NCBI GenBank assembly: GCA_036172245.1
Contig: JAYWIR010000006.1
Coordinates: forward strand, 1,054,001 to 1,118,000
Direction: 5' to 3'
Source: Raillietiella orientalis
Lineage: Eukaryota
Length of the DNA stretch: 64,000 bases
Made by a program: the position numbers and the translations under genes. Of this stretch, positions 1 to 64,000 are shown piece by piece; position 1 is the first letter of the stretch; the number at the start of each line of letters is the position of its first letter. The notes beneath the pieces are model-generated. The model worked only from the letters and a program-made list of their open reading frames with translations, did no database searches and was not told the origin of the DNA.

Positions 1-2044
1 TGGTTCGCAGATAAGATAGAACTTGAACGAAGTACGCTAAACATTACCATTGTGCGTTCTGTGAATTGCTTTTCACGTGTTTTGCAAAATTTTGCTTGAA
101 AAAACTGACGCTTGATGACTCCACGAATTTTACTTAGCTTATATCTAAACATTAATGAAGACGGGTAACATGATGAAACGGTTCAGTCCAGATTTTGTAA
201 GAAAAAAAAAACTATAACTATAACTCAGTACCATTCAACAATGCATTTGTCCATATATTTTCAAAAACTTTTAATTTTTCAATTGAAACAGAAAAGATAT
301 ATAAAAATCCACAGACTTGAATTGACATAAATGTTGTAGATTAAAAAGAGGCAGAGAACTGCAAAGTTTCTCAGACACCTTAAAATGCCTTTCCGATACT
401 GGGAGTCTTAATTTCATAGAGCATAAACAAAATAGTATATACATATTTCTATTAATTTTATTCTTGAATAAGTCTGGGCATCTGTAAAGATGATTTCGAA
501 AGCCAGAAATTTTTTAAGCCGACTTACGAAACCTAAAATTTTTCGTGCCACCAATTCTATGTCCACCATGAGGAAGTCAAATGAAAGGGATTTTAGCTAA
601 GAATAGAAAATCACGAAACAAATATTTGACATCGAATTGAGAAGCTGTAACAACGGAGTCATTATCAAAGGTGCGAATTATGGCATTTGTAAAGAGAGTA
701 AACTATGTACAAAGAGAAGAATGAGATGAGATGAGAAATGAGATGTATATGAGAAAAGTCCTGATTTCAAATATTTTTTTATTTACAGATTGTTTTATAT
801 ATTATAAAACTATCTTCTGATTTGCTATGATAAATTATCAATTTGCTAAGTTAACGTCAAAGAAAATGCGACTCAAACCCCTTCTTAAAAAACAGTTGTA
901 ACAAGCAAACAATAACAAAATCGCATTACATTGTCTTACATCAATCTTAACATCCGATAACACGAAGATATCGACAATAATATTACTTTAGTTTCTACTG
1001 ACTAATACATTCCAACAACCCCCTACTCCTCCAAAAATTCCAGAGACCATTAAAATCAAAGTCTTAAAAGAGTTTAGTCTAGCACGCAAACACTTCCCTC
1101 AGGTAGTGCGTGAGAATAATTTGTAATTATTTGTAAACTTCAAAATAATGCCAAATTATATGATTCTCAGAAAACATGAAACCTCGAATTCCAGATGTGT
1201 TTTTGCACAGAGAATCGTACGCGGAATCTAAATCGAAAAAGAAACTGAATCGAAGAAAAATTCAAAAGAATAAGGGAAATAATGATTTCATTCTCCATAA
1301 AATGCCAGGATGCTGAAATTCACTAGATATGACCACAATGAGAATTATTCTACTGTCAGAACTCTCTACAGGCTTATTTCGGTACGAAAAGAGGAATGAA
1401 TATGTTTTTCGCTGTATGATTGTTTGACAACATTTCAATTACTCAGCTCAATTCTGTGAAATTTATGCTCATATTCTCAGTCTGTAATGTGCATCTGTTA
1501 AAATCGAGCCTCCCTATTTGCCTCATGCAGCTGTGCGGGTCCTGGCAACCAGTGAACGGTCCATTGGATGGCACGAAACATATCGTGCGGCAATAACAGT
1601 TGTATTTCTCTTGAATCTCTCTCTTGAATTTCTCTTCCCCGAAACACCATAGGTTGCATGCTTTGCATACACTTTTAGTAGGAGCAAAAGGGCACTTATC
1701 ACGAAATAATAGAATTCTCAACCACTTCTGGTGACCGTGTTTCTACCTTTTGGTTCAAAATTTATTAATGGCTCATTTAATACAGACCGAAAAGCAAAAA
1801 CGATTCCTGGTTTATACTTAGAAAACTATATCCTTATACATTCCATTATGTTTATTTAATGATTCCACAAACAACAGCATGTTTTGTTTTGTTTTTTCCA
1901 AACATGTGAATGATAATTTCTACGTATGAGTATTGGATTTAAAAATCCATCGGGCTAACCATGGCATTGGCTGATGACATAGAATTGCAGATTTATGTTA
2001 ACTGCATTTTACTTTTCGAAAGAACACACTTTTTCATTTACCAC

Positions 2045-4699
2045 TCAACATTTCTGCTTACTGGAATCCTCTTTAAGAGCAACCACTCTGTTGAATACCA
2101 ACTGAAACGTAAATTCACTTTACCACTTTTATTTGTTGGCTGACAGCTTACCTGTGATTCAGTACTATCTGGATCGACCGAAAAAAATCCTATTCTTTCA
2201 AATTGGAATTTGTCATAAACCTTGGCTGACTGAACATGTTTCTCAACCAAGACGTGGTCCAATGTGATCAAGGAGTTGACATTACAATCAGACAGGAATC
2301 CATCAGGAACCTCTGAAGGATCTTCTGGGTTCTTGTGCTGAAACCTATTTACCACTATGATGCACAAATTACTATGAGATACTTACAAACGAGTATACAC
2401 ACGAACTTTGCATTCTACATAATCACTAACCCAATGAATGAATGACCGAGGTTTATTGTGTTCATTGAGTGCTTCACATCTGACATGCAACTCTTTGGGT
2501 TTACCATCTACACTGTGTAGCACTTTCTCCAGATGAATAACATAGCCAGTGTGGCTTAATCCAACTGGCTGTATCTTTGTTAATCTCCAAAAATTTTCAT
2601 TTGCTTCCTAGAAATTCATCTAAATAAAGAACTGGACGACATCATAACTAACCTCTAGGAAATCATTTTCATCTATGTAAATAACACTCCCAAATTGAAT
2701 TTGATGAGAACCTTTTTCAGGATCATGTGGAAAATCAGGAACATTAAGCATGATAGGCTGCTCTAAGGGTAAGTTGGATATTCGCACAAGCAGAGGTGAT
2801 GTGACAGCCATGACCCGAGGGGCAGTCTTGTTTAAAGAGTCCCTCACACAAGCTTCCAAGAGTTCTGGACTAATAGAGGTTTGTGCACCTGTCAGTCCCA
2901 CTTTTGCACAGAAATTATTTATTGCACTGGGAGGGAACCCCCTCCTCTGCAATGCAGAAAGTGTGAATAATCTAGGATCATCCCAGTCTTTGACAATTTT
3001 TTTTTGAATAAGCTGTGCAATCTTTCGCTTGGAAACTACTGTATAATCTAAATTGAGCCTGCCATATTCCCACTGAACAGGACAATATATTCCCAAAGAA
3101 TTACACAACCAATAGTAAGCTGAGCGGCGTGATTGGAATTCCTTAGTGCACAATGAATGTGTTATATGCTCCAAGGAATCGCATATAGCATGCGTGAAGT
3201 CATAAGTGGGATAAATGCACCACCTATTTCCTGTGCGTGCATGGGGGATATATTTAATTCTATATGCCACTGGATCTTGTTTTCCTTCCTCCAAAGTAAT
3301 TTTCATGCGCAATGTGGCTTCCCCCTCAGCAAACAATCCATGTTTCATATCCTAAAATAAAAAAGTTCAAAGTTCAGATAACACCATGACTAACCCAAAA
3401 TAATTTTGTGCTCTCAGACACTGGACGATTTCTCCAGGGAGAAGGTGGAGGATTGAAACCTTGTATTTCTTCTTGAGGCATATGGCAAACATATGCTTGA
3501 TTTTGTGCTATCAACTGGTGGGCAAACATGTACAATTGATCAAAATAATCAGAAGAATAATTTATTTTATATGGTTGGTAACCTATTGTGTGTGGTTAGC
3601 AAACATAAGCAAATAACAATAGCTAACTTACCTAACCACTTTACCATCTCCTGAATAGCTAAAAAAAAGTATTCTTCTTCCTTTTCCGGATTCGTATCAT
3701 CATAGCGAAGCAAGCATACACCATTATGTGCCTGGGCATATCCAAAGTTGATATTAATTGCTTTTGCATGGCCAATATGCAATAAGCCATTGGGCTCTGG
3801 TGGAAAACGTGTGCGGACTATTCCTCCTGTTATTTTCATGTGCTCATGAAGAAGGCGTAAAGTATCAGGGGTGACCACATAACCAACAGTAGTATGGTTC
3901 TGACCAGGAGCATGGAAACGTGCCTTTGTGCCCATCAACTCATTAACTGTTGCTGCCCCACAATCTTCAGGTGTACTTCCAGCATTCTGAGCTTTTTTTT
4001 TTTTCTTATTTGGTTGATGAGCATCCTGATTTGGGCAGGAACCCAGCAACTTTTGCAACTGGGTATCCAGTTCCATTTTAACAGCCTTTCCATCAGCCCA
4101 TTGTAAGGAACACTTGACACTCTGAAGAAGGGGTCCTATATTTATTTGATTCCTATGCAAAACATGTAGTTCATCACTTTATTCCTTTACCCATGTTCGA
4201 TCAACAAATCCTGATTCCGAATCAATACTTCTTTAACTGCCTCAGAGATTTGCTCTTGAGTGATTTCTACACCTGCTCCATAACTGGCTTCCCACTTTTT
4301 TTCATCAACTGGTTGTTCAGGATGATTAAGAAGGTAGTTTAAAGCAGCTGACTTATTATTTAACAATTATTCTTGATATACGTTATGTACCTGTTAACCG
4401 CACTTCAGAGTTGATTTTCCCTTGTGCTATGCTAGAAACCAGTAAAGGAAGATGTATTAAAATTTGTTTTTTGCACTGACTGGCTACATGGTATAGCAAA
4501 TTAGCTACCACCTTGGGAATAACATCTGGGAATTCATGCCGTACCTACACAAGAATCACAAAAGTGGACTGACTATGCTACTAACCTCGTTGACAGCCAG
4601 GACAAGATTTTCAGTCAAAACCTTGTTTTTCAATGTTTCTAACAGCTTTTGGTTACTCAAACCTAAAGCTACTAAAATCTCCTTAGAATCCATCATCAT
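2045..4699 (-). CDS. QARS1: Glutaminyl-tRNA synthetase (7 exons)
   Basis: Class I aaRS motifs [66 protein letters not shown]-terminus [25 protein letters not shown]. In-phase GT-AG introns at 4545-4585, 4348-4390, 3583-3631, 3352-3394, 2608-2652, 2345-2386, 2102-2151 define the exons (8 counting both terminal exons). Stop TGA 2045-2047; AATAAA near 1851-1856. Confidence 0.97.
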
Positions 4700-4735
4700 G
4701 ACTCTAGAAAATTACACACTTTATTTAAATGATCA
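4700..4735 (-). promoter_or_regulatory. 36-nt intercistronic spacer: poly(A) signal plus unpaired 3' splice acceptor
   Basis: Minus strand reads TGA-tgatcattta-AATAAA-gtgtgtaattttcTAG-agtc-ATG; AATAAA at 4720-4725, acceptor AG at 4704-4705. Confidence 0.7.
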
Positions 4736-6160
4736 TCATGCCTTTGCTTCATTGGTTTCTTTAAATTGTTTTTGCACATTCAAGTGATCAATCATTTCTT
4801 TCTGTCTAACCCATGCATAACCCAAACTCCCAATCAGGACAATGCCGTTGGAAAACCACCACAGGTAAGAGCGTTCTTCCTGATACCAAATGCAAGCTAA
4901 TATGGTCTGCACGCAAGCTTTGGCTGTACCAGACACATTATGTGTCAGTGGAGATGTAAACTGCTCAAAGCGAATCAGTATTTTCCAAGGCAACTTTATG
5001 CTAACCTGTATCTGTAGTCCAGTTACATATGAGATTGAGAATCCAAGCAAACTAGATGTTAACATCAGCTTCCAGAAAACACTGGTATCCATTAATGATA
5101 AAAGCATACTATGAGTAATTTCTCCAAAGAGGAATAACAAAGGAATAAACAGTAAACTGGCATTAAGATTGTTATAGTACGTTAACAACCAAATGCTTTT
5201 GTTCACTTGTGGTAGGACTTTCTTAGTGTAAATAGAATTAAGGGAAACAAAAACGGAAGCTAGTGTTCCAAAAAGGATTCCTGCTTTAGACAGACTGCCT
5301 AGACAAGAAATAAATGGATGTCTATGTTTACTTAATTGTTATCATCATTCCTGAGTCAAAATAATACCAGATATCTCCTCTTGATCAATTCCTAGATAAT
5401 ACCCTCCAACGATCAGAATACTGCAACACACTGCATTCAGAGATGTAGATTCATCTGCAAAATTCCTGTACTTTAGAATTCAAGTAATAACTAGACTTAC
5501 ACAGAATTAGATAAGTAAAAATCATGTTGAAAACTGGCGTCAATGATCTTCCAATATAATAAAATGCAACACTAGCATATTTCAAACAAAAATTATTGAA
5601 TGTCACCATCCCAATAAATAGACAGCTTAACGGTAAAATCTAAAATACTACAAAATAACACCTATCTGGTCAGTTATTGAAGAATATTCATGCAAGATAA
5701 ACAATCAAGCAAACAAACAAAAATTGAAACTCTTAATGAATATATAGCAATCACATGAAGGCATCGAATAAATATACACCTTAACCATAGTAATCGCATT
5801 AAATGTTACATCAGGTATTCTCCTGTGTTCTACCGTAGCTGCTTCTACCAAAACTGCAATGTGACAAAAGACAACTGTCATGAAACACTGGAACCATGTT
5901 ATAAATAATGGTGCATCAATATCCTGAGTGGTGGCTCCGTTCAGTAATTCTTTATTTACGAAGACCATTGTTATGGAAACGAACCTGCACCCCAGTTAGG
6001 GGAAGAAAAAGAAAAAAAAAACTTTGAATGGCGCCTACGGGGAGCCGACACCTTACCAATAAAGTGCTACAATACCAGCAATTTGGAAACTGTGTTTCCA
6101 TTCGTGCACGCGTTTCATGAAACGCTCGACAGATGTGTTGATGCTCTCCTTAAGGGGCAT
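4736..6160 (-). CDS. SLC35C1: GDP-fucose transporter 1 (nucleotide-sugar transporter)
   Basis: Spliced translation [87 protein letters not shown]. Introns at 5985-6056, 5640-5779, two more near 5.3-5.5 kb, and 4961-5005. Start at 6160 or the in-frame ATG at 6118. Confidence 0.93.
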
Positions 6161-6169
6161 TTTGCAAAA

Positions 6170-6720
6170 GCCATAGACTCATCGACCTTCGTTGGATAGT
6201 CAGGCACCGGTCACCACATGCACTGCCACGGGGGAACACATTTTTCTTTCTCCTTCTCCTTCGAACCCCCCCTTCCCCTCCAGATGCGGCGCGCCGATCT
6301 TCGCCTCGCAGAGACGCGCGTGTTCCCGGCTGCTGCTGCTGACGTGTTTTTCTTCCTTTTTTTTTTTTTTTTTTTCCTCTCTCTCTCTCTCTCTCTGCCT
6401 CTTCTTTTCCAAAGTCCCATCCTCGGTCGGGAAGGGGGGGGTTCCGCCCGCGGTGGAACCCTGCGGGCCTGCCCGGCAGCGTAGGTCGTAGGAACCGGAC
6501 CGGCCTCGAGGTGTGCAGCCCAAAGCCGAAGAACGTGAGGAGGAAGGAGTTCTTTGGCATTTAGGAGATAACGGAACTGCGATTGCAGTGTCGTCAGTGG
6601 GGGTGGGGGGAGAGAGAGAGACAGTAGGAGGCTGTGATTCGGTCTGTGAAGCAGGTGGTGAAGAGTATCGGAGGGGAAACGCCCCCCCCAACAAATGGGG
6701 AAAAGTGACCCTTTTAGGAA
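6170..6720. promoter_or_regulatory. CpG-island-like, probably bidirectional promoter between SLC35C1 and GST
   Basis: Local GC/CpG-rich island with (T)n and (CT)n tracts, set in AT-rich DNA between divergent genes. Confidence 0.6.
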
Positions 6721-7365
6721 AGTGCATCGCGAATTCACGTTTTGTGTTTTCGATTATGAAAGCGATTGAAATCCTGTGATCTTGATCGGAGTAGGGAATC
6801 TTTTCGAAACTTTCCCAGAAAATTGGGAATGAAAGTAAACAAACGTCTTCTGCTGTGTATTGTGCTTGATTTCTCATTACCATCCCTTCAGAGCATGATG
6901 CGATGCATAACCCAATAATTGTTCTATCGTATTTGGTGAAAGAAGTGTGGAGAAATCGAGTTGTTTCAGAAACAAACTTCATTGTTACTTTAACTTAACA
7001 TACTTTCTCTTCTGTTATTTTTTATTTCTATAATAAAGTAACATATTTATGCCAGTTCCTTTACTTTTTGGCACATTTGTCAATTAAAACCATGAATGCA
7101 ATGCAGTACTAAAGTTCAAAAGAGACCAAGATTAGATTAATTTACCCTCAGTGCTTCACGTTGACATTGTGGATTCAGGGAACATTTTAGAGAAATAATT
7201 CTTCCGTAACCTTGCTGGATATCGGCACAAAAAAAAAATATATCTGTGTTGTTGAGCTTTTTTTTTTTTTTTTTTTCTTTGATTGTTCATTTCTTATTGA
7301 GTTACCTTGTGTGAATGTTTATTGGTTTTAATTAGTTTATGGAGATTATGCAATTTCTTTCAGCC

Positions 7366-8213
7366 ATGAAGCCAATTCTAGGATATTGGGACATTAGAGG
7401 GGTGAGTTCTATTATGTTGTTTCATATGTTACTTTTTGTATGTTGTAGCTGGCACAGCCTATCCGACTTCTTCTGGCTTACACAGAAACTGATTTTGAAG
7501 ACAAAAGATACAGTGCTGGATTAGCACCGGATTATGATAAATCCTGTTGGTTCGATGTCAAATATTCTTTAGGACTGGATTTTCCCAATGTATGTTAATT
7601 GCCACAACCATTGCATCTAGTTTTTGATGTTTTTGCAGTTACCATATTATATAGATGATGATGTCAAACTAACACAATCCAATGCAATTTTGCGTTATTT
7701 GGCGAGAAAAAATGGTTTATCTGCAAGCAATGAATCACAGCAAGATGTCCTGGAGAATGTAGCATCAGATTTCCGTAGAGCATGGGGTTCTCTTTGCTAT
7801 AACCCCAAATTTGTAAGATAAGATAAGGTATACTTATAATATTTACTTCCATCTCATGATTAGGAAGAATTGAAGGAAGATTACTTAGAAAATCTTCCTA
7901 GAACCCTTGAAACCTTTTCAGATTACTTAGGAGACCAACTTTGGTTTTTAGAAGAGGTAATCATCTCCAAATAATTTCCAGTTTGTTTATCAGTTTTAAG
8001 TATTTTTAGCTTTCTTATGTTGATTTCCTTCTCTATGAACAGTTTGATGTACATCAGTATTTGGATTCAGAATGTCTGGCCAATTTTCCTAATCTTTCGG
8101 ACTTTTTATGTCGTTTTGAAGATTTGCCAACTATTGCAGCATATATGCAGTCCAATAGATTTCTGAAATGGCCACTGAATAACCCAATCGCCAAATTCGG
8201 ACAATTAAAGTAA
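7366..8213 (+). CDS. Glutathione S-transferase, mu class (5 exons)
   Basis: [33 protein letters not shown], mu-loop [47 protein letters not shown]-terminus [15 protein letters not shown]. Introns 7402-7448, 7590-7638, 7813-7863, 7957-8009. Confidence 0.95.
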
Positions 8214-10324
8214 TTTTGAAGCATTTCTGGAAAGCTTACTATAGTCAGAAATGGCACTATTGTATATTTTCGTGAAAATGGGTTATAGTATTTTTTTTTA
8301 CAAGCACATGGTCTTCAAAATTAATTTTGTCCAAGAAACAAGCCTCAAATGCTTGGAAAAACTATTTTTGTCTTTTCAATTCATATTGTGATCAGCACCT
8401 ATGTATTAGGATCTTCATGCAAATAAAAATTTGAAGTTATGATTAAAAATTAAAAATATAGTAATGACTCATATTGGCTAATAGTATGTTTGTGTGAAGT
8501 TGGCATTTTCAGAGGTTATAAAGCCATGAGTCAATCCTGTAGTACATCTGACAGTTTTAAATAGCTTGATCATAATTTCAAGTTGGATTTTTTCATGTTT
8601 TTGATATTTTTTGTTTTTAAATATTTACCATGTAAGATACCCTATGCAAGGCACATTGCATAAGGTATTGCAATTCATAATCACAAATAAAAAGAAAATA
8701 AAAGACCACAAAATTTTCTTAGCCAGCACTTTTCATTTCATGGGTATTCTTTGTGTTATTGACAAATACGACTGCTTTCATGAACACTGAGTATTTTCAA
8801 AATATGTGCTTATTAATAAGTGGATTAACAAGAATCAGTAATCACGGTAATCAAAATGTTCTAAGCAGAAGCTGATTCAACACAGAATTTTGCAAGAGCT
8901 AGGATTCACACAAAACAGCCTGTTTTGTTGTATGAACAATGAAAATGTAAAATTCCTATCAGTTTCTAATCACCAAACTTTCATTTATTTTTAGTCTCAT
9001 AACAAAAATAAAACATTCTAAGGAAATGCCAGATTTAGAGTGGCATAATTTCGATTCAAATCAAATTATGAGGGGGAAATTTCAGATTAGCACATTTAAA
9101 AAGCATACAATGAAGTATGCAAAATAAGTAAACAAATGCTACTATACTGGAGCTACATGAGTACACATAATGTGAGCAAAATAAATCAGCCATTGAAAAA
9201 TAAATTTCTTTACAAATTTGATGTATCTTAAATGTCCTTAAATATCTCGTGCATTAAATGAAGTAATTGAACGTTAATGACCACCTGCTGTGAGAGTACT
9301 GTGTAAAAGCACAGAGTAAAAACATTTTGATTGGCTGTTGAATGTAATTAAATGCTTCAATTCTAGCTTACCTTTGTCTGTGACCTCTGCATGTAAAAAA
9401 CAGCTCTAGCATTTATTTGAAATGTTGACTTTATTCACAATCTTATTTACAAAAAAGCAATTGCATCTGCTTTTACATTTTGTATATTTGCACATATCAT
9501 ACACATACACACTTCATGACAAAATACAAACTCAAATTGATATTTTCCGCCATAGTTCATGATAACAGTAAAAAAAACACTGATCTTTTCTGCAATTCAG
9601 CATATGAACAGAATTATTCCACTTTAAACTCACTTGTTATCACAGAAACAATCTGTGTTAAGAAATGGGAAAAGCTTTCATGATTCTCCAATATTTTCAC
9701 TACAAACATGATTTCTGTTACTTATGTGCATCACTGTGTTGTTAAAAAGCTCATTGGAAACTTGTTGCATAGCAGTAAAACAATGCTACTCCAACAAGTA
9801 ACTAAAATTTACATGCTGCTAAACTAAAATGGTAATTTATTCCAGTGATCGTGGAATTAACAAATCAATGATGTAAAAACAATTTCCACATACTAAACCT
9901 GCTTCCTCACCTGCAAATCAATAAGCAAACAATATTTTTAATATAACTGCTGTAAGGTACTTATGTAAAAATTTATTATTAAAGAAAATGGAACATGGAC
10001 AGTATATGGAATTACACAGCAGACTTCTTTTGTAAACATGGCATGCTGTTCATTTGGCACTCTTGTCTGGCATAAATTGCTAACAAAAGTATTGCAAGGA
10101 AAAAAATTCCAAAATTTTTGCACTGTCATGGAAAGAATGAGTGTTGTATCTCTGTCAAGCCTAAGGGTACACTATACAAGCAACCAGCATTGTGGGGAAT
10201 TTGATTTTGATGAGCAACACTTGTTGTGGATTCATGCATGCAATTACATTTCATATGCATGTAGTTGGACTTGCAGTCAAGTCATGTGTCTCGTTTACAG
10301 GAAACAATCCACCAAGTTTTTGTG

Positions 10325-13167
10325 TCACGCAACCAAACTTTCTTTAGTATCCATTTTATCTCCTAAAGAAAAAGCAATAAATAGAAAACAAAAGGCAACA
10401 AAGTAACAGCAAGCAGTAGCTGAACTTACCCTTGTCATCCTTAAGCAATTCTTTAGTTTCCATTTTCTCAAAGGGTTTTTCTTCCTTTTCCTCAGTTCTA
10501 GCTTTCTTACGTACTTTATCTTTATATATTCTAAGAGAGGATGGATGACTCATTTTTCATGCATGTGTTATTCTACCTATGATCTTTCCTTCCTTCTGGA
10601 TCCTCCTCTTCTGAATCACTATATTCATTATCATGAGCTACCCTTTTATCAGAAGCTCGAATAGAAATCCGCTCATCTGGACTGGCCTTCTCATCATCAT
10701 CACTATCCTCAGGTAAGGCATCCTCCGGGATATCTACCAAAATTAATAGCCACAACAGTTTCATTACCTACTTTGCATTTGAATGCCTGGAGCATGAGGA
10801 AGCATCCTCAAGTTTTCAAATAGACGGGTTCTGTGGAGCAATCAAAAGATCTCTGAGAGGCATACTCGAATACCTACTTGATTTTCTCCAAATACTCAGG
10901 CGTATTTTGATTGGCCATATTTGAGGGGGAGATATGCAGCTTGAAATCAGGCCCAAAATATTCAAAATAGTCATTGTAAGGCAGCTCATTGGCAATTTCC
11001 ACATTCAGTGCTATGGAAGTCTCATATGCCCAACAGCGTGCTACATTTCTTATGGTGTAACCTCCACCACCAAGCATCAACATGGGTAAGTTGAATTTTT
11101 TAATGAATTCCACACACTTTCCATGGCCTTTGATTCTTAATGAAGAAATGAAATGAAAAATACAGATTACCTTTGAGAGTTAAGTTGAAACAACCTAGCC
11201 TATCGCCTGTTAGAGAGTCTGAACCACATTGTAAGATCACTGCACTTGGTTGATATGTTTCCATGACCTTAGAGATAACAGGTACAAACACTGACTGATA
11301 GCTGTCATCATCCATTCCATCCCTGAGAGGGAAATTCAGTGCATAATACTTCCCCTTGCCAGCACCAATATCCTAAGAAACCATGAGCCATATAGCAAAT
11401 ACAATTGTTGTTACCCGGAGATCTCCTGTTCCTGGAAAATATTCTCCATATTTATGAAAAGACACTGTCATAACACGATCTGTCGTGTAAAAAGCTTCCT
11501 CCACACCATCTCCATGATGGATATCAATATCCACATAAAGAACACGCTGATGGTACTTTAATAATTCCAAAATAGCTAATGCAATATCATTGACATAGCA
11601 AAATCCAGATGCTTCCGATTTTTTGGCATGATGAAGGCCACCTGCCCAATTTATAGCAATTTCTGTTGCCTGCTTGTTTAATTTTACAGCAGCAGCAACA
11701 GTGCCTCCTGTTGACAATTGACAAAACTCGTAGAGACCATCAAATACTGGGCAATCTTCCCCAACATTAACTAAAAATTCGCTCAATCAAAATAAAGTAC
11801 AGCATGTTCCCATAGTTACATCTTTGCATTTGCTTGTTGTACTCAGACATGTTGTCAGGTCTTATGCTTCTCAAAAATCTAATGTATTCATCACTGTGAA
11901 ACTTGGTCATCTCTTCAGCTGTTGCTTTATGAGGTCTCTGAATGGATAAAAAACCTTCTTTCATGAAGTTTCAAGCTTGCAATACTTACATAGATTTCCA
12001 TTTTTCGATATAAACCATAATTCAAGAGCAAATTGTGTGTCATTCGTATTCTGTGTGGTTTCATTGGATGCCCCTGTCCATAGTAATAATTGCCAACATC
12101 ACCTGCATAACAATTACACTCTTAAAGTTTGCAAACTCAATTCATTTGCACTGTGCTCTTTCAAGGGACACTAGTTTTTGCGAACATACACTTTACAACA
12201 AGGATTTAAAATGCTACTATGAAACAGGAAGAACCATTTCTCAATACTTGTGCAGAAACTAATTTGGACGCAAAGTAATTTTAAAAAAGATTTAAAAACC
12301 TCTTAATAATCTGTCATTGCAAGATTTACGAGACGTTACCACAAGTATTAACAACAAAAAACACTTAAGTTTAATGCTAAACTTGAAAATTCCAAGTGTT
12401 TCATTGCACCAATACCAAATTCAATTCATTTGACGCCTAAATTTTTTGAAAATCATGCTTGTTGATTTTCGGATAATTGCCACAATCTTTTCAAATAATC
12501 AAATGTAAGCAAATATAGCTAGAAAAATCGTTTTTCTAACACAAATGGCTCTTGTGAGCACGGAAATTTAATATCACAAAACCATTAAAACCATTCAAAT
12601 GTAATCTAGACTTCAACAGGTTAGCAAACCAGGAGATGCAAGCTTCAAACACTATCACAACGCGAGGTACCACAAAGCATTCTATACATGCAGACTGCTA
12701 TGCTTCATGCATCACAAGCAGATCAGATTAAACACTCCATTCCAGAGTAGAAGACATTCATCAAAAATTTTGGGAATTTATTTTGCACTTATTTATAAAA
12801 CCCAAAGTATTCGCTGCATTGGGCTATTTATTTTTTTTTAATTTTATTATGCAATTGATTATTTTATAAAGAATTACAAAATCAAGTACGTAACCATACT
12901 GGACACAAACACAATACGAGATATTATTAGATGGAATATATCGATGAAGTTTCCCTTGAAAATTCATCACAACAGTTATCTTTGCAATAAAATCGTCCAG
13001 TATACTGAAGAAAAACTTAAATTACACTCAAAATATAACTACATATTGTGACCCTTTAAGACTGGAATTGCTTTTTCATCTTCCTATTAAAATTTAAAAC
13101 TTATATACATTAACTTACTATCGTAATAATAACAAACTTTTTTTCGAGAATGAGCAGGACTTGTCAT
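10325..13167 (-). CDS. HDAC1: Class I histone deacetylase HDAC1/Rpd3
   Basis: [16 protein letters not shown](S)[65 protein letters not shown], acidic tail. First intron 12103-13118; the other introns are about 38-67 nt. Confidence 0.97.
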
Positions 13168-16100
13168 TCTACTTTTTTGGAGAACACTATTCAATAAACA
13201 TCGTATGAAGCTCAATCACAAGTGATATTTCACAAATTCACTCAATAACAAACCCAGGACGCTCGAATTCACCTCTCTAGATCAAATACCAAGTTTGCAC
13301 ACCAAAATTTATTTTCGGTATTAATCTCAATAATTGCATTTTTCCACATATAAGAGCCTCCAGATTCCAAAAAATTAAGATAAAGAAAAATATGACACAT
13401 TTAAAAAAAAATTTAGTGCATGCCGTAAAAGATACAAAAGATTTTTATTGTTCTAACGTTCAAATCTTTATTAGATAACGGTCCCAAAGTTGCATTATTA
13501 TTAAATTGCTATTTCTAAAGTAAAGTTTAAACAAGACTGATTTAATTGAAGATGAAAAAACCTTCATAGTATGATACAATAAGAAAAAAGAAAGACAGCT
13601 AATTATTCGGGTGCCTATTCTGATGAACCGTGTTTCAACATTACTTTACAAATCGTAATTTCATAGCAATTCCAACAAATGGCTGCGTTGTCTATTTGCT
13701 ATCAGCATTTAGACTTAAAAAAAAAAAAAGGAGATATTGATGATATGAGGAAAAATAGCCTTACTTTCCATTTTAAAATTAGATAACGACAAAAATTCGT
13801 ATTTGATTCATTAAATAAAGTCCGAAAGACAAATGGTTTTGTTAATAGGGGAAATTTCTGTTTTCTGGATGTTCAGTTATTATAATTTTTTTCTTTTCTA
13901 GAACGTCCTAATCATTCACTACGTTCTTAAATTCAGATAGCCGAGAGTCGAGTACTATATATCATCTCAGCAACATGGTCATATACATAATAATCCAGAA
14001 AGACTGAAAACTAAAACATATTTACTAAAGGATTAGCGTAAGACGTTGAACTCCGGAAATTACTAACATATTCTGCAAGTAGGATATTGAAGAGCAAAGT
14101 TAACTGAAAATACAGTACACGAAATCCGTTGAAGATCTTTTGCTTTTCTATTGCAACTTCAAAAATATTCATCTAGATTCGTTTACTTGCTCTGCTTTCT
14201 TTCATTTCCACAAAGCAACTAACCAAAAATTTATGTAGATATTGTGAGTGCCATCTTAGAGATTACTAGTTGACTTTGTATGATTTCAAATTTTGCTGGA
14301 AAGTAGTTATATTCATGCATGCCCCATGTTGACTTTTCAAATGTTCGGTAGCCATTTTGTTTTCCGAGCTTTTCCGGTTCTTTCCAAAATACCTGTTAGC
14401 GTCTAATGCTTCCTATAATAGTTTTCATGATCGAATGCTCACCGTATTCGGAATATGTGACTTACCTTAATTCTTATTCAAGTTTCATTAGAGGTAATTT
14501 ATAGCATGATGACTTTCTTTACCTAATTTTAAAATGCATATATGATTTAAAATATTTTAAAGAAGAAATTTATTGGAAAACTATTTCAATGCATTAGTTG
14601 ATTTTCAATGGCAAGCCGGAAATTATATGTATGAATTGATAAAGTTGAATCACGAATATTTGATATTCAGAGTTTCGAAAGTGCTGCAGCTGTACAGAGG
14701 AATACATTTCTCTAGGATACTTATCCCACAACAGAGCATAAATCTTTTTACCAAAAATTACGTGAATTTTGTAACGCTGAGTGATATGCTAACAGTACAT
14801 GCTACCTCGTAAACAAGGAATGAACTGTGTGGTTGTGATGGTACTTTACGTAGCAGAGGATTCACAAAACTAGAACGTAGATCGTGGAATGCTATGAAAC
14901 AAAGTTTTCCCTAATAATGCTGATCATTTCTTTTGCAAAATGTCTATAACGTTTCATTGATAAGGAGTCAAGTGAATTTCTGTGCTAAATAAATGTGTGC
15001 AACGAATTAATTCTCTTCCTCTATGTTTTCTGGAAAGGACATTCGGCACAAAAATGTTTCGAAAGAAGGAGCTTCCTTGTATCCGTGTAACAAGATGAAA
15101 ATTCTTTATGTAATAAACTGTCCTGTAATAAGAGTCATGGAAGGCCGCACTGTATTTTTTTAAGCGCGTATTTAAAATTTGCAGTTCTCAAATGGCGTTT
15201 GTGAGCCTATTAACTTTTTAATGACTAGCAGCACCCTCATCATTGTTCATCAAGACGTTCACAAAATCACAATTGCTCATTCTCCAGTACTTTATCATTA
15301 GAAAAAATCTTGATGCACTTCAGCAGTGCAAATGCTTAATTTTTCAAAAATTCTCTTAAATACCCCATGTAAAAAAAATGTACATTAAATGAAAAAGACA
15401 TTTTTAGCATTACTCTTTAGCATTTGACAGGGGCGATGTTTCCAGAGTGCGATTTGGGCGCAGATGAAGTCCTTTCGAAACGTACCTTCCGGTTTGCATG
15501 TTAAAAGAAACATCGAGCTGACCGAGTTTACTGTAATCTTTTTTCCTGAAAATATGAAGTCGACTGAGCAGGATTGAAATTAAATGCATATTAAATCAAA
15601 GGGAATGGCTTGTGAGAGGGAGAAAGGTGCTGTTTCAAGAATTTCGAAAAAGGCAAGTCAATTATATTTTCAATGAGTGTTTATTTATTCAATCCTGTTT
15701 GGTCGTGCATCGAAACGATATCTTCAAAGTATTTTTCGAAAATGCAGGTCAACTACGTATTTCTAGCAAGCTATGAACTTGTATTTTGATATGCCTGTGT
15801 ATTTATTTCTTGTTTTTCGAGAGAACTGGGATCTCAAGTGAAGGTGCCTCCTACCCTGTTAAAGTGATTTTCTTTCGCATCAGTGTTTTGATGATGTTCG
15901 TATGGGTTACTGATTCAAGACCTTTCTTTAGGTTACCCTTAAATTCGTCACCTGGAATGATCGAAATTCCTTTCCGTTACAAACTTCCAACATACTTCAC
16001 ATGCTGCTTTGAAAGTCATTAACCCTATCGTTTTAATCGTTTCCCTTTGGCGCTGGTTGTTTTGGAAAACCCCTCATGTTTCAAAAGTAGATGTCAAGGG

Positions 16101-16389
16101 AACATCGGGACCAATCCGAGTTTCATTCAGAGAACACAGCTCTTGAAATGGTGGCTTTCGGATGGACATTTTCATCATTTTCCACAGGGAAGCATTCGTC
16201 ACAAGTCCCTTCATTTACATGGAGGATTTAGATTTTAGAAAACTATTTCCTCCCCAAATGCGGATGCACGTGCAAATCCAAGATGATTTTCATGTACAAT
16301 GGAATAAGCATCAGTGTTTTAATGCAAATGGCTTGCTAATGATCTTCTGAATCTAGCGATTACTCTTGTTTCTTGATACCTTTCGAGGT

Positions 16390-18650
16390 GTTTTAGGTAG
16401 CAGGAAGGACAGCTTCGCCAAAGAGAAGTAGGAAATCTAACATTTTCGTGACGAAATTTCTTCGTTCCACGCTGGAAGTGCCAAGTGGTTGCCCTCCAGT
16501 TGTTTTTGCACTTTTAGAGGAATTATCGACCTTTAAGTTTCCTAGGGATACTAAGATGGAAATTAGAGCTCCCTGAATAACTTCACCCACTCTTCCGCCT
16601 TCCAACTTCACCCTTCACCCAATTTCAGAATAGGTTACAAGCAATTCTTGAGCTTACGAACCACAGTGACTTGGAGAAGATGATGAAATGTCACTACGAA
16701 TACGTTGAACAGGGATCGTCAGATACCGCAGGAATGCCTCTCTAATTCCGCCGATTCGAAATCGCGAAACCTTGCTCTTAATGACAAAGACAGAAAATAA
16801 CTTTTGAATGAATGCTAAAATTGAAACAAGCAAACGATGAAAATGAATTTTTGGAAACGAATTCGAGGTAGAGAGAAAAAAAGAAAGGAAGGGGGGGGGA
16901 TCTTTTTAAGAATATCTCGTGAAATGAACTTTTCGTTACTTGCGATTATCTGAATATCCAAAGAATTAGGAGGAAAAATGGGTCATCAGTGACCTGTTTC
17001 GAAATACGAGAGTGGTGGTAACTGGATGATGGATAATTACTGGATTGTGGACACCAAAATCTAAATGAATGCCGGCTATTTTTCCTTTTGTTTTGTTTTC
17101 GAGAGAAACAGAACTTGTCTGATTTTGGCAACAGTTTCGGGTTGCAATCCTCCATGCAGCATTAGACAGCTAAAGGGAAAACAAGTTCCTTGGTAAGATA
17201 TTTGAAAATCACACTACAGAACGATGGAATGATCAGATTGGAAATTCATTATACCGCTCGTGTCATCTTAGTTTGTTTCATGTTAAAAACGATCTCAGAA
17301 TGAATGTAACTGGCACTTTCATCAGCACTACTATCATAGGGAGTTCACGTTTCTCGAGTATTAGTGTTTATCAACAAGAGACAAAAGCAGATTTCTCATA
17401 GCATACCGGAAAATTCGCAAACATTGTTCTGAGGCCATGTATCCCAAAATGTACATGTCCACGGCTGGAGATCTCATTTCCAACTGTTGAATTTCAAGGT
17501 AACCAGTGTTGCACTAGTAATTTCCAGTACTCTTGTGTTCTTGTGCTTGCAAGATAAGAAATGGATGAACTGTTTATACATGGATCACTTAAATCTGAAA
17601 TGGAGAATTTCAATCCCTAAAGGAGCAATCCAACCTTCGAATCCTACGGAAACACCTTATAAAAAATCCCCACTCCACGGCGTGGGACTGTACTCATTTG
17701 TCTTCGCGATCCTCAGCAGCCACGTTGCTATTAGATATTCTTACAGAAACACCCACAGCTATTGGGAGTTATCGGTCAAGACTTTAACGAGGATTTATTT
17801 AAACCAACTGCAGCAATAAAGTGAGTTATAACGAATTCAACGAAATTCAATTTAGACCTGTAAGGGAAAAGCGAATAGAGAAGAATAAAGTGAATTTCAA
17901 TTAGTCTTTGATAAGTCTACAAGTTAAAGATGGAATGATATATGTTACGCATAAATGCCTCTTTGGATTCAAATTTGCCACTTAAAGTCATCAGATGAAT
18001 GGTTGGAATACTCGTAGTAAAGGTTTCTTTGAAAAATTTCGGTAGTGACTTTAATCTTACGAGTTGCAACCTGTATTGCCATTGTTTCACAAGTGTTCCA
18101 CCTAATGCTTCTTTGGTTATTTTCAACGATTTCAAAAAATTTTAATTAACGTGGTTGGGAAGTTGCCATCTGTCCTGATCATGTTTTTGCAAAATTTTTA
18201 TTAGAATGTCTGGAATCTGTATACCCATTTCCTGCAATTCCAACTTGTTTCAACTGCTTCCCAGATTTCTCCATGTTCACAGCCAAGTATTCTTCATAAA
18301 GGTTTTATCATAATTAAAGAAAAAATTCTATGTGTTCATGTTCTTGGATCTAACTCCTGAATTTGTTAAATTATAAATCCTCTTTTGAATGTTTGTGAGC
18401 CTCGAAATGTGGGAAGTATATGAACCCAAAGCAGACATTCTCTTTGCTCCTGTTGCATTTAGCTATGTCAAAGCTGAGGTTTCTGAATTTGCTTCTACAT
18501 AAGCACCAGCCCAAACTAAAGCACAGTGTTTCCTTTTCCATATGAAGGAAAATTCTTATTGAAATTGTGGATTCCTTTTCTCCTTGCAAATGTCTTCCGT
18601 ATACATGATCTTCATAATTCATAAATCATGGAGATCTCCAAGATCCCTAG
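16390..18650 (-). mobile_element. Heavily decayed Ty3/Gypsy pol fragments (RT, RNase H, integrase)
   Basis: Frameshifted motif remnants: PFSLSNAA (~17156-17178, cf. MPFGLxNAP); HLSIPRKLK/VDN and TTGGQPLGTSSVERRNFVTKML (~16439-16559, cf. GIPxxxxSDNG...TTxYHPQxNGxVERxN); EKETLCFSLGW (~18507-18539, cf. EKEALAIVW). Boundaries approximate. Confidence 0.5.
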
Positions 18651-19779
18651 AATGTGTCGTTCTTCTATTTATGATATGCATCCAACATCAAGGAAAATAT
18701 CGAAAAACCAATCATCAGTAAGCGAGATGATTTATTATTTTTCAATATTGGGGGGGGAGGCGGAGGGGGGGATCTTCCATCGGTGTCAACAGCATCATTT
18801 TAAATAATCTCTAGGCTTCTTACTCTGCTGTTTAAGCTTTGTAATAGATACAAACTATGCAGTATTAAAGAAGTGTTTTCTAAGCTGTGTTCAGATATTA
18901 TTCAGAAAGAGGAATGAACATGATAAACTATCCTTTTAAAAACGAACTTTGTGTAACACAAAGATTTTTGCAAGGATGCCAATTTCAGTGTTATGGAAAA
19001 ATGTACAGAAATGTCAGTTACAATCGGAATGAACAAGCTTATATCCTCCTTCAATTCACAGCGCTCAGCTGTTTAAGCTGAGTATTCGAGTATTTCGTAA
19101 AAGACAAGTAAGCAGAATCCACACTTGATGGGATGAGCTTGTCTGCATACCGAACTTGATTAAAAGAAAGAGGAACCAAAGGGAAAGTTAGTGTTGACAC
19201 TTGTTCTGATAATTTTAACAGAAATGCAAATGAGAAGTCTAAGAATGCAGGATCAAATAAAGAAACTTTCGTTCAAAAACTAAGATTTCACGGTTTACAC
19301 ATAATTGACACATACTCCAAGAAACATAAAATGAATATTCAGAGATATATAAGGTCTCACTGAAAGAATCATAAAAGAAAGAAATTCCGGAAAATGTGAA
19401 GGTGAGGAAGATGGATTTTTAAAAGTGAGGGCACAATAGAAAGGATGAAGAATTGCTAATTGATGAGCCGTCATCATTACATAATTATCTAATCTGATGT
19501 AAATCCAAGTTATATTCCACAATAAATCGTAAACAATTAGGTCTTGCTTGTTGGAGTTTTCATTTTAAAAATTTCGAGAAATAATGAAAAATTTACAATT
19601 TTATAATTTGGTAGTGCTGCTTTGCCGGTGTGCATGTTCCTGCTTGTATATAGTTTAAGCGAACCCGGGAACGTGTCTGTGTACTCCAGAATTGACTGAC
19701 ACGTACTGTAGCGTGCCATATAAAATATAATCTATCTTGTGCCGTAATTTTCCTTGGCTGCACTTGCAATATAGTTGAA

Positions 19780-21409
<1,630 letters not shown>

Positions 21410-21414
<5 letters not shown>

Positions 21415-21512
21415 AGAGATTGTGTGGGCTTGATGAATGTCTTTTTACTTTGTGGGTGGTGATTTCAATGTCTTAATGTTTTTTCATAATTGCAGACAAA
21501 TATGCCTAAGTT
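21410..21512 (+). promoter_or_regulatory. About 100-nt intercistronic spacer: ATTAAA, GT/T-rich tract, unpaired 3' splice acceptor
   Basis: ATTAAA overlaps the AHCY stop (21410-21415), followed by a GT/T-rich stretch, then ttttttcataattgCAG ending at 21495, with the kinase ATG at 21513. Confidence 0.6.
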
Positions 21513-23281
21513 ATGGAACAAGTGAATGCTGGTTGCCAACATATGCTTTTCACAGTGCTCAACCATGCTCTGTTGGATTTAGTGTGCTCCTATTGTGAAC
21601 GAGATACTTTCTTTCAGAATAAGCTTTATGAAGGTAAAAGAAAAAAAAAAAGATATTGCTGTCGATGTCACAGAACTTGATAGAAATGTGCTGCCAGCTA
21701 AAGCCTTTTGGACTTGGCCAGCTTTCCTCCAGGGCTGAATTGGCCAGACCTCCTTACACGAAAGCATTAAAGAACTTACTCTTATGGACACAGCAGGCAG
21801 TTCATGAAGTTTACCAGCAGTCATTAGTGCCATTTTCTGCCGGATCTTGTCCTTATACCAAAGACTGCTTGTCTTGCTTCCCTTCTCGCCTGCAGTCAGA
21901 ATTCCAGATTTTAGAGCAAATCGGAAAAGGAGGATTTGGTGTTGTGTACAGAGCACAACACCGATTAGATAATGTCCAGTATGCCCTCAAGGAAATTCAC
22001 TTCAGGTATTCCTAGATATAGTTCCCAGTGCAGCAATAGTTTGATTTAGTTGCTCAAATGGACTGCAAATGACGAAAATATTGAATGAGGTGAGGGCCAT
22101 GGCTGTGCTTAGTCATCCCAACATTGTGGCATATAAAAGTGCTTGGTTGGAGCATGCAGTAAGAGTATCAGCTAACATTACCAGTCACTTGCAAATTTCT
22201 CAACCTGGTGAAAATCCATGGACTACGTCAGTGCGGAATTCTGGGTGAGGGGCTTTTCTGTGTTGGTAACAGCAACAATTCCTGATCCATAGCAAGGAAT
22301 CTGATGAGGATTCCTATGTCATATTTCTCCACTCTGATAAAGATAATAATAATGCCCATAGTTGCCCATCATGTGGCTCTAAACATTGCCAATGTGAAAA
22401 CTGTTCTGTGGTTACTTGTTCAAAGCATCGGTCAATGCATATGCCATTTTCCTTTAAACTGTATTTACAAATGGAACTCTGTGGTATCTCCTTAGCTTTA
22501 TGGCTTAATACTCGAAACTTTGATCAGGGGTTGGTAGCACTGGATTATCAAACAAATACAAGACTCTTGCGAGAGATTCTTCAGGGCTTGCAATACATTC
22601 ATGAACATAATTTGGTGCATCGAGACATAAAGGTAGTGTAATTACTATTCTAGAGTGCCCCACCCAAACTGATATAGCCACATAATATATATTTCAACAA
22701 ACGCACAAATCAAGTGCAGATAGGTGATTTTGGTTTGGTGCATGCTGCTTGCTCAGAGCTTCTAGAGTCACAGCATGCACTAGCTATACAAGCATGTAGT
22801 GCAGGGATAGGAACGCTGCTCTATGCTGCTCCCGAGCAACTGTCTGGGCATCTCTGCTCCTCCAAGGTCAGTTGTTGATGAGCAACCTGATGCTGATCAT
22901 GATATATGTAGTGTGATATGTATAGCATTGGAATTGTTATTTTTGAACTATGGCAGCCATTCAGCACTGCAATGCAAAGAGAAGAACAAATACGACAGTT
23001 GCGAGCCGGTAGTTTGCCGTCAGAGTTTGTTGAGCTTAAACCTCAGCAGGTAAAAACTGAAGGAAATCTTTGCTAACTGACATTTGGTTAGGCAAACCTG
23101 ATCCATCAGCTAACTTGTCTACATCCTAATGAAAGGCCTTCAGCTGCTGAGACATTAGCCATCCTAGAAACACACCAGAATTGGACTTTGGTGCAACCTT
23201 TACTTAGAATTAATGAACGCTAAGTGTTCTTGTCAGATCATCAGCAAATCGGACCGTTTTCCTCCCAGAACTGTGCAATGA
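21513..23281 (+). CDS. EIF2AK1: eIF2-alpha kinase, HRI-like
   Basis: N-terminal helix region NHALLDLVCSYC..KLYEEMCCQL; kinase motifs SRLQSEFQILEQIGKGGFGVVY, YALKEI, HPNIVAYKSAWLE, a kinase insert, LYLQMELC, HRDIK|PHN, IGDFGL, GTLLYAAPEQ, CDMYSIG. Introns 21634-21683, 22006-22049, 22245-22292, 22633-22677 and others. Stop at 23279-23281 if the last intron is spliced, otherwise 23221-23223; AATAAA at 23447. Confidence 0.88.
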
Positions 23282-59471: not shown

Positions 59472-59849
59472 TTCTTTTTTCTTTTTTTTTTTTAAAAAAA
59501 AAAAAAAATTTGAATGCCTAATGGATTATGAATAAAAATAGGTTGCACTTATTTCTTTTGAAAGATTTCCATCGATCTGAAAGCAGAATTTCGTAAACTG
59601 GAATGTCACTCAAGTCGTCGTTTGGTGAAACAACAAAAACGGATCACATTCAGGCACACATCTGCAGCGGCTGCTCACAAGAAGAAAAAAAAAAGGGTGG
59701 GGGTTGGTCGGGGGTGGAGGGAAAGGAAAAAAAAAAAAGGGGGGGGAGAAAAAAAGGAGGGAAAAAAAGGCAAATGAGATTCCACATGATGCCATGAGCC
59801 TCACTACCACCCAATTTCCTGCACTGCGGGAAAAAGTGACAGCTTGGGA

Positions 59850-63990: not shown

Positions 63991-64000
63991 CATCAAAGAA

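Follow-up and report, generated by a model that had tools for sequence, protein, structure and literature searches.

The genes for the GDP-fucose transporter SLC35C1 and for glutaminyl-tRNA synthetase (QARS) follow one another on the minus strand of the window (the whole 64-kb stretch of DNA analysed here), with a spacer of 36 nt (4735-4700) between the stop codon of the former and the start codon of the latter. We regard this pair as a well-formed candidate, short of a demonstrated case, for a known kind of operon, that of the Ciona or C. elegans SL1 type, which lacks intercistronic DNA; to this reading we tentatively assign a probability of about 0.4. The anatomy of the junction, the identity of both genes and the absence of a promoter-type CpG footprint at QARS are established (Table 1), and the same-strand neighbours are closer together than the roughly 100 nt taken as the upper limit for operons of these two types.

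Anatomy of the SLC35C1-QARS junction

The six exons of SLC35C1 join into a stop-free model of 350 codons, and the last of them match GDP-fucose transporter 1 proteins with the PF03151 domain at no more than 57% identity (best 120 of 528 matches). The exons of QARS encode the tRNA_synt_1c_R1 and R2 domains, the catalytic domain and both anticodon-binding domains (PF04558, PF04557, PF00749, PF03950, PF20974), and its introns are 41-50 nt long. The tblastn alignment of horseshoe-crab QARS begins at its residue 4 and base 4696, which identifies the ATG of QARS as its true start, and the reading frame is closed upstream by an in-frame TAA (4714-4712). For the large exon of QARS the best identity is 74% (best 120 of 2559 protein matches), and no full-length QARS above this value was found among the best 120 of 2559 matches listed from a collection of 5.8 billion clustered proteins. 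The best 120 protein matches of each gene are spread across arthropods, vertebrates and molluscs. In a quick tree with approximate exon limits, QARS has an end branch of 1.21 and stands unresolved beside chelicerates and the root, while SLC35C1 (tree without the Artemia row) has an end branch of 1.57 and stands at the root; both are long branches outside arthropods, vertebrates and molluscs, and SLC35C1 also outside acoels and an annelid. Of the lineages considered (tunicates, larvaceans, chaetognaths, mites and bryozoans), none received support. QARS was found in none of 28 metagenome loci that encode a relative of SLC35C1 (49-77% identity in the best segment), a weak negative given that only eight of them extend more than 1 kb downstream.

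The layout of the spacer given in the original prediction (stop codon, AATAAA, ttttcTAG, 4 nt, ATG, 36 nt in all) was recovered in full, with each element in its place on the minus strand. The AATAAA is embedded in tttaaataaa (4729-4720), which may alternatively be read as a weak TATA-like element; it sits 15 nt ahead of the acceptor AG and is the sole AATAAA or ATTAAA in the 550 nt past the SLC35C1 stop, the next one being 553 nt away. The acceptor-like site is overlapped by a TCTAGA (4708-4703), and the four bases agtc separate its AG from the cluster of QARS ATG codons. With a matrix built from 16 hand-checked introns (15 of them 41-72 nt long and one, in HDAC, of 1016 nt) this acceptor scores 3.7, compared with leave-one-out scores of the real sites with a median of 2.9 and a range of -6.8 to 13.9; TAG acceptors account for eight of the 16 curated sites. 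Among 23,358 non-genic strand positions, 133 reach a score of 3.7 or more, i.e. one per 176 nt per strand, so that about 0.2 sites this good are expected by chance in a 36-nt spacer; for AATAAA (one per 776 nt per strand) the corresponding expectation is about 0.04. The motifs of the junction are thus individually unremarkable, and what chance does not explain is that two conserved genes lie in tandem only 36 nt apart.

Table 1. Features of the SLC35C1-QARS locus and of the AHCY-kinase junction (positions in the window)
Feature	Position	Strand	Remarks
SLC35C1 (GDP-fucose transporter) gene, six exons	4736..6160	-	PF03151-bearing relatives, tblastn, joined model
SLC35C1 exons	6160-6057, 5984-5780, 5639-5501, 5454-5368, 5298-5006, 4960-4736	-	joined model; last exon includes the stop
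SLC35C1 stop codon TGA	4736..4738	-	read from sequence; coding region ends ...GCA TGA
AATAAA, likely SLC35C1 poly(A) signal	4720..4725	-	begins 11 nt past the stop; use as signal putative
Splice-acceptor-like site ttttcTAG	4704..4711	-	AG at 4705-4704; first exon base would be 4703
QARS start ATGATGATG (ATG ATG ATG, three consecutive ATG codons)	4691..4699	-	homology from codon 2
QARS (glutaminyl-tRNA synthetase) coding region	2045..4699	-	Pfam, tblastn
Candidate cis donor TGG/GTTAGAC in last SLC35C1 exon	4810..4811	-	score 6.5; range of real donors 2.7-10.2
SLC35C1 exon-1 donor TTG/GTAAGG	6056..6057	-	score 8.5; candidate shared cis donor for 4704
CpG-rich island between divergent SLC35C1 (-) and GST (+)	6001..7000		likely shared promoter region
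AHCY to protein kinase, tight tandem junction	21412..21673	+	second junction of similar pattern
AHCY stop	21412-21414	+	
Strong acceptor ctttctttcAG	AG at 21616-21617	+	matrix score 6.6
AATAAG	21618-21623	+	
Candidate kinase starts	ATG 21628 (with 40-nt intron 21634-21673) or ATG 21665	+	

CpG context and a second tandem pair

The two 500-nt windows of the CpG-rich island have a GC content of 0.53 and 0.45 and a CpG observed/expected ratio of 0.98 and 0.88, compared with 0.2-0.45 in the flanking gene bodies. In 400-nt windows the ratio is 1.01 and 0.90 on the island and 0.88-0.98 past the 3' end of QARS, whereas it stays at 0.16-0.58 over 2001-6000 and reaches its minimum of 0.16 across the junction. 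Depletion of the gene-body type extends without interruption between the 3' end of QARS and exon 1 of SLC35C1. The flanks of SLC35C1, HDAC, AHCY and the NIF-phosphatase gene have a pooled CpG observed/expected ratio of 0.89; the 500 nt upstream of the QARS ATG contain 5 CpGs versus about 15-16.7 expected from these four promoter-side flanks (Poisson P 0.003; P 0.03 over 300 nt), a deficit that is partly trivial because the same sequence is the body of another gene. The assertion that there is no room for a promoter is correct for the 36-nt spacer and too broad for the last SLC35C1 exon, which could accommodate one. Transcription of QARS from the island, as originally proposed, receives indirect support from the single CpG-depleted block that it shares with SLC35C1 and that starts at the island. 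Altogether, the CpG context favours co-transcription of SLC35C1 and QARS from the island at 6.0-7.0 kb. GST adjoins the far side of this island; its ATG is preceded, at a distance of 2 nt, by an acceptor that lies about 0.5-1 kb away from the island.

A gene map of the window was derived from Pfam searches with 141 and 103 ORFs, which gave zero matches in the GC-rich block. Both tandem pairs seen in the AT-rich parts (SLC35C1-QARS and AHCY-kinase) look alike, being tight and devoid of a CpG footprint, while divergent pairs lie 1.2 and 6.6 kb apart. In the AHCY-kinase pair 203 nt separate the AHCY stop from the strong acceptor, the CpG observed/expected ratio is 0.15-0.32 over 20100-22900 and does not rise at the junction, a CpG footprint is lacking (P 0.0002 over 500 nt), and no matching upstream donor is evident among the top-scoring donors of 19000-21600. 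An Rfam search across the 64-kb window found no SL RNA family up to an E-value of 5, and only U6 at the gathering score. Ten further weak Rfam matches up to E 5 belong mostly to microRNA families.

The operon reading and its rivals

For the operon reading we infer that both genes are transcribed together and that the AATAAA and the acceptor are used; the trans-spliced leader is its most conjectural element. A single transcription unit would start in the CpG-rich island at about 6.0-7.0 kb, and the polymerase would read through both SLC35C1 and QARS. Some precursors would be cleaved and polyadenylated about 10-30 nt past the AATAAA, at a point that coincides with or adjoins the acceptor and the ATG of QARS, so that the 3'UTR of SLC35C1 mRNA would measure about 25-40 nt; others would be trans-spliced at the AG (4705-4704) to a short leader with a cap, yielding a QARS mRNA whose own 5'UTR would consist of agtc only. 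The putative poly(A) site overlaps with the acceptor, and a given precursor could therefore take only one of these two routes. This reading is favoured by the 36-nt distance between two conserved, unrelated genes of the same strand, by an acceptor that equals the median real one and belongs to the common TAG type, and by the presence of a poly(A) hexamer within the spacer, while the first AATAAA or ATTAAA past the stop codon is about 185 nt away in QARS and about 210 nt away in GST. Against it speak the frequency of such acceptors by chance, the presence of cis donors that could pair with this one, the AATAAA itself, unlike most upstream cistrons of Ciona and Oikopleura, the lack of an Rfam match to SL RNA within the 64 kb, long branches in the protein trees that place the animal in no group known for trans-splicing, and gene-body CpG depletion, given the link made in chaetognaths between trans-splicing and loss of methylation. 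Moreover, only three of the seven gene starts examined (QARS, GST and the kinase) have an acceptor no more than 10 nt from the ATG; among these seven, no such acceptor precedes the ATG of SLC35C1, HDAC or the NIF-phosphatase gene, and at AHCY a TATA-like box is accompanied by no more than a weak TAG. The acceptor had been described as an orphan; it is of median strength and lies 4 nt before an ATG, but candidate cis donors at 4810, 6056 and 6266 could pair with it.

It is possible, if rather doubtful, that QARS possesses a compact promoter of its own inside the 3' part of SLC35C1. Transcription could start upstream of 4811, in which case the SLC35C1 stop and the AATAAA would be removed with a 5'UTR intron of 107 nt, running from the donor at 4810 to the acceptor at 4704; the donor score is close to the median of real donors, and the length is acceptable in a genome with introns of 41-72 nt plus one of 1016 nt, although each strand has one donor with a score of 5.8 or more per 573 nt and one within 110 nt has a chance of about 0.2. 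Alternatively, tttaaataaa could serve as a TATA-like box with a start about 30 nt further on, at the ATG cluster, where the three tandem ATG codons that open the QARS ORF would secure initiation on a very short leader; the acceptor would then be a chance motif, as its expectation of about 0.2 per spacer allows, but transcripts starting further upstream would meet the AATAAA within their first bases. Internal promoters do occur within true operons, 693 of them in Oikopleura according to the text of PMC6389100 that deals with them. Both versions are at odds with the missing CpG-retaining footprint in the 300-500 nt upstream of QARS, unlike at the four other starts, even if promoters need not be unmethylated, and with the recurrence of a similar arrangement at the AHCY-kinase junction.

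Cis-splicing from a shared upstream exon, driven by a single promoter in the island and joined either to the rest of SLC35C1 or over its body to 4704, is in our view unlikely. The observations that speak for co-transcription in the operon reading apply here as well, the donor of SLC35C1 exon 1 is real and one near 6266 (score 5.8, ending an untranslated exon near 6267) is plausible, HDAC provides a precedent for a long intron, and the GST acceptor, which fits a cis-spliced 5'UTR intron, makes the design conceivable in this genome. Yet the junction of exon 1 (..TG at 6057) with 4703 creates a TGA followed by 3 nt and the QARS ATG, so that a 34-codon upstream ORF would burden the mRNA of a housekeeping synthetase; the donor at 6266 is weak and its use hypothetical; polymerase and spliceosome would have to bypass five good internal acceptors and the AATAAA; and the AHCY-kinase pair lacks an evident upstream donor in the region scanned. 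The original prediction that the exon-1 route makes no fusion protein is borne out and extends to every SLC35C1 donor, none of which gives an in-frame fusion, and QARS must accordingly be translated from its own processed mRNA. Translation of QARS from a bicistronic mRNA by reinitiation, leaky scanning or internal entry appears highly implausible: the 36-nt spacing would permit it in principle, but an upstream ORF of 350 codons with 26 ATG triplets (all frames counted) excludes leaky scanning and makes reinitiation very inefficient, as judged from general knowledge of eukaryotic translation, and a poly(A) signal lies between the two ORFs.

If the operon reading is confirmed, an essential tRNA synthetase would have no promoter of its own, and its expression would hinge on whether a shared precursor is polyadenylated or spliced. 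Gene callers that do not consider trans-splicing are likely to merge or shorten SLC35C1 and QARS. Should the species stand outside the groups known for trans-splicing, the pair would represent an additional independent origin of animal operons and would bear on the coexistence of operons with gene-body methylation. The strongest form of this idea, that Ciona-like operons without intercistronic DNA arose independently in a lineage with no described SL trans-splicing or operons and with gene-body methylation kept, we consider quite improbable; if true, two such junctions in 64 kb would imply that a large share of tandem genes is operonic, and the lineage would be a counter-example to the proposed link of trans-splicing with loss of gene-body methylation.

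Comparison with known systems

A limited literature search for this gene pair together with the term "operon" returned no report on such a pair. In the cholinergic ChAT/VAChT locus one promoter serves two genes, one of which lies within the first intron of the next. A shared upstream exon would give SLC35C1-QARS a similar design, with one promoter, two unrelated proteins, nesting and a choice between splicing and polyadenylation; unlike in ChAT/VAChT, the sole donor known to be used, that of SLC35C1 exon 1, would place an upstream ORF on the QARS mRNA.

Among trans-splicing animals, Oikopleura dioica resembles the locus in its introns (peak at 47 bp versus 41-72 nt here) and dense genes (one per 3.9 kb), as given in the genome description in PMC4122922, and in its median intercistronic distance of 31-33 bp (1 bp in Ciona), as given in the comparison in PMC7986045, versus 36 nt here. 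The parts of these sources on Oikopleura sequence elements further describe an A that usually follows the acceptor AG (AG/A at our junction) and a T-rich TCTAGA whose AGA can coincide with the trans-splice site, as the TCTAGA of the junction would; as a promoter element of the Oikopleura type it would direct a start 40-50 nt downstream, here past the QARS ATG codons. With 11 TCTAGA observed versus 11.5 expected in the window, the hexamer is not enriched, and we treat its role as an Oikopleura-type element only as a lead. The window contains a 28-kb GC-rich block, which would not be expected of that genome. The upstream cistron also has an AATAAA, unlike upstream operon cistrons of Oikopleura as summarized in PMC1488885. 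In chaetognaths, 18% of genes lie in operons, in which housekeeping functions are over-represented, and the sections of the genome study on methylation tie trans-splicing to loss of gene-body methylation, which Paraspadella genes lack (Piovani et al. 2025, PMC12460157). The strong gene-body CpG depletion of our locus differs from this, and a chaetognath affinity therefore fits badly, as far as that account of methylation goes.

The Ciona operons without intercistronic DNA, as presented in the relevant passages of Satou et al. 2006 (PMC1488885), are mostly dicistronic, have the poly(A) site of the upstream mRNA right at the acceptor AG, and probably undergo two mutually exclusive processing outcomes on one precursor; SLC35C1-QARS shares with them the same-strand arrangement and a spacer with no room for a promoter, and its putative poly(A) site would likewise lie at or beside the acceptor. 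It differs in that the AATAAA lies shortly before the AG, whereas 16 of 18 such Ciona operons have no canonical AATAAA within 40 nt of the poly(A) site (PMC1488885), and in that trans-splicing is established in Ciona and putative here. No tunicate and no nematode protein is among the best 120 matches listed for SLC35C1 or QARS. The gene-body CpG depletion points to germline cytosine methylation, which most nematodes are not known to have. In its sequence elements the junction nevertheless resembles the C. elegans SL1 type, since the three characterised operons of that type retain the AATAAA (Williams et al. 1999, as cited in PMC1488885), and in both cases there is scant intercistronic sequence, the upstream AATAAA is kept, and the poly(A) and trans-splice sites (both putative here) adjoin one another.

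Two conserved genes separated by 36 nt

What is firmly established at this locus is that SLC35C1 and QARS (QARS1), both conserved and unrelated to each other, lie in tandem on the minus strand with 36 nt from the SLC35C1 stop to the QARS start. The last exons of SLC35C1 match GDP-fucose transporter 1 proteins with PF03151, and a full set of glutaminyl-tRNA synthetase domains is present in QARS, whose coding region ends at 2047-2045 (minus). We take the ATG cluster to be the true start, because the alignment with a horseshoe-crab QARS begins at base 4696 with residue 4 of that protein. The best identities among the matches listed (74% for QARS, 57% for SLC35C1) are scattered across several phyla, and in the trees each protein sits on a long branch outside the sampled groups. 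A metagenome scan yielded 28 loci with SLC35C1 relatives, none of them close, and none had QARS downstream, with just 8 of them extending more than 1 kb in that direction.

The original prediction described a poly(A) signal and a splice acceptor within this spacer; both are indeed there, on the minus strand, in the described order. TCTAGA (window 4703-4708) coincides exactly with the QARS acceptor, amid T-rich sequence, and the acceptor reads AG/A.

Features of the SLC35C1-QARS junction and of other loci in the window
Feature	Position	Strand	Remark
SLC35C1, six-exon model	6160-6057, 5984-5780, 5639-5501, 5454-5368, 5298-5006, 4960-4736	minus	350 codons, stop-free
SLC35C1 stop TGA	4738-4736	minus	36 nt from QARS start
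AATAAA	4725-4720	minus	11 bases past SLC35C1 TGA
TAA in QARS frame	4714-4712	minus	shuts QARS frame upstream
Acceptor ttttcTAG	AG 4705-4704	minus	15 bases past AATAAA
agtc, then ATG ATG ATG (QARS start)	ATGs 4699-4691	minus	directly after acceptor AG
GST acceptor tttctttcAG	AG 7362-7363 (window 7354-7369)	plus	2 nt 5' of ATG 7367
AHCY	ATG 19781, stop 21412-21414	plus	
Strong acceptor ctttctttcAG	21616-21617	plus	score 6.6; 203 nt past AHCY stop
AATAAG, then kinase start candidates	ATG 21628 (with 40-nt intron) or ATG 21665	plus	after 21616-21617 acceptor
U6 snRNA gene, full-length	43077-43183	minus	Rfam 81.7 bits, E 3e-19; inside GC-rich block

Sixteen introns of QARS, SLC35C1, GST, HDAC and AHCY (window 2000-21100) were curated by eye against conserved protein sequence. 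They are very short (41-72 nt in 15 of 16, the remaining one, in HDAC, being 1016 nt), with weak polypyrimidine tracts and TAG acceptors in half of the cases (8/16). On a small acceptor matrix made from these sites the junction acceptor scores 3.7, against a leave-one-out median of 2.9 for the real ones. Acceptor-like sites scoring at least 3.7 are frequent by chance (133 in 23,358 presumably non-genic positions, or 1 per 176 nt per strand), and AATAAA occurs at 1 per 776 nt per strand; each motif taken alone is therefore weak evidence. The junction AATAAA carries some weight, since in the 550 nt past the SLC35C1 stop it is the sole AATAAA/ATTAAA; in QARS and GST the first poly(A) hexamer lies ~185 and ~210 nt past the stop.

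CpG depletion across the pair

The AT-rich parts of the window (1-23000 and 54000-64000; 36% GC) show a mosaic CpG pattern, with observed/expected ratios of 0.15-0.45 in gene bodies and ~0.9-1.0 in non-genic stretches. Methylation of cytosine in the germline leads to loss of CpG, and on this ground the mosaic points to methylation of gene bodies in the germline of this animal. One depleted block (2001-6000) has its limits exactly at the QARS 3' end and at SLC35C1 exon 1, and reaches its minimum, 0.16, across the junction. The ratio is 1.01 and 0.90 on the CpG-rich island between SLC35C1 and the divergent GST gene (6001-6800), and 0.88-0.98 past the QARS 3' end. The island's 6.2-6.7 kb part includes a (GA)n/(CT)n tract as well as a run of A/T.

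If QARS had its own promoter, one would expect a CpG footprint like the one seen for SLC35C1, HDAC, AHCY and the NIF-phosphatase gene, whose 500-nt stretches 5' of the ATG have a pooled ratio of 0.89. No promoter-type footprint was seen 5' of QARS, where the nearest 500 nt hold 5 CpGs where base composition predicts 16.7 (P 0.003 at a promoter-like rate) and the nearest 300 nt hold 4 against 11.1 (P 0.03), a shortage that is partly trivial, because the sequence there is the body of another gene. The unbroken depletion thus supports, indirectly, the predicted co-transcription of SLC35C1 and QARS from the island.

Other gene starts and the rest of the window

The sole other tandem pair seen in the AT-rich parts, likewise closely spaced, consists of AHCY and, 3' of it, a protein kinase gene recognised from Pkinase fragments. 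The gap between them holds no canonical poly(A) hexamer, and the CpG ratio stays at 0.15-0.32 throughout 20100-22900, with no footprint at the junction. Divergent pairs are spaced more widely (SLC35C1/GST 1.2 kb, HDAC/AHCY 6.6 kb). The acceptor at the GST start, ~0.5-1 kb from the island and with its best upstream donor at 6511 (score 6.5), could belong either to a 5'UTR intron or to an outron. No acceptor was found 5' of the ATG of SLC35C1, HDAC or the NIF-phosphatase gene (presumably UBLCP1-like), and AHCY has a TATA-like box ~50 nt upstream; altogether, three of the seven gene starts examined have an acceptor near the ATG.

Amid this 36% GC, CpG-poor landscape lies a ~28-kb block (window 23500-52000) of 58-74% GC and CpG ratio ~0.9-1.1, which, its edges being gradual, does not look like a mis-join. 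Every one of its six frames contains long ORFs, and Pfam matched none of the 71 that reach 170 aa; the minus strand holds ORFs of coiled-coil appearance (~33.7-37.5 kb and 46.2-47.9 kb). U6 is the only RNA family that reaches the Rfam gathering score in the whole window. A second GC-rich island (59600-60450), upstream of the NIF-phosphatase gene, combines CT-rich tracts with long homopolymers (C14 and T-runs).

Expression of QARS

Any explanation must account for the QARS 5' end, with the inferred SLC35C1 poly(A) site falling on the QARS start codon. We prefer, at a probability of roughly 0.4, an operon in which a single precursor would be transcribed from the island across both genes and then either be polyadenylated past AATAAA, yielding SLC35C1 mRNA, or receive at 4704/4703 a trans-spliced leader, yielding QARS mRNA. 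Against it stand a lineage not known to trans-splice, the chance frequency of the acceptor motif and the minority of gene starts that have one; Rfam found no spliced-leader RNA gene in the 64-kb window. [quoted passage not shown]

A QARS promoter inside the last SLC35C1 exon is conceivable but doubtful. Transcripts from it could carry a 107-nt 5'UTR intron from a donor of median strength at 4810 to the junction acceptor, which would neatly take out AATAAA; alternatively, tttaaataaa could act as a TATA-like box. Cis-splicing from a shared upstream exon seems unlikely: the exon-1 donor would create an upstream ORF of 34 codons that stops 3 nt 5' of the QARS ATG, although a weaker donor at 6266 could yield a clean leader. 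No SLC35C1 donor spliced to the junction acceptor gives a fusion protein. Translation of QARS from a bicistronic mRNA is highly improbable, as ribosomes would face an upstream ORF of 350 codons with 26 ATG triplets in its coding sequence.

If correct, the operon would be a further case of a known type, and would go beyond this only should the species prove to fall outside the known trans-splicing groups. Search results, screened as such, offered nothing relevant on SLC35C1 and QARS as an operon. The proposed layout is found in Ciona operons that have no intercistronic DNA and in the SL1-type operons of C. elegans, the latter with AATAAA kept (both from excerpts of PMC1488885). Spacing and intron size resemble those of Oikopleura in the excerpted parts of PMC7986045 and PMC4122922. 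In Oikopleura TCTAGA can serve as a trans-splice site and as a male-specific core promoter element, its AGA being a possible splice site (PMC6389100, in excerpt); the QARS acceptor lies within the same hexamer, though TCTAGA is not enriched across our window (11 observed, 11.5 expected).
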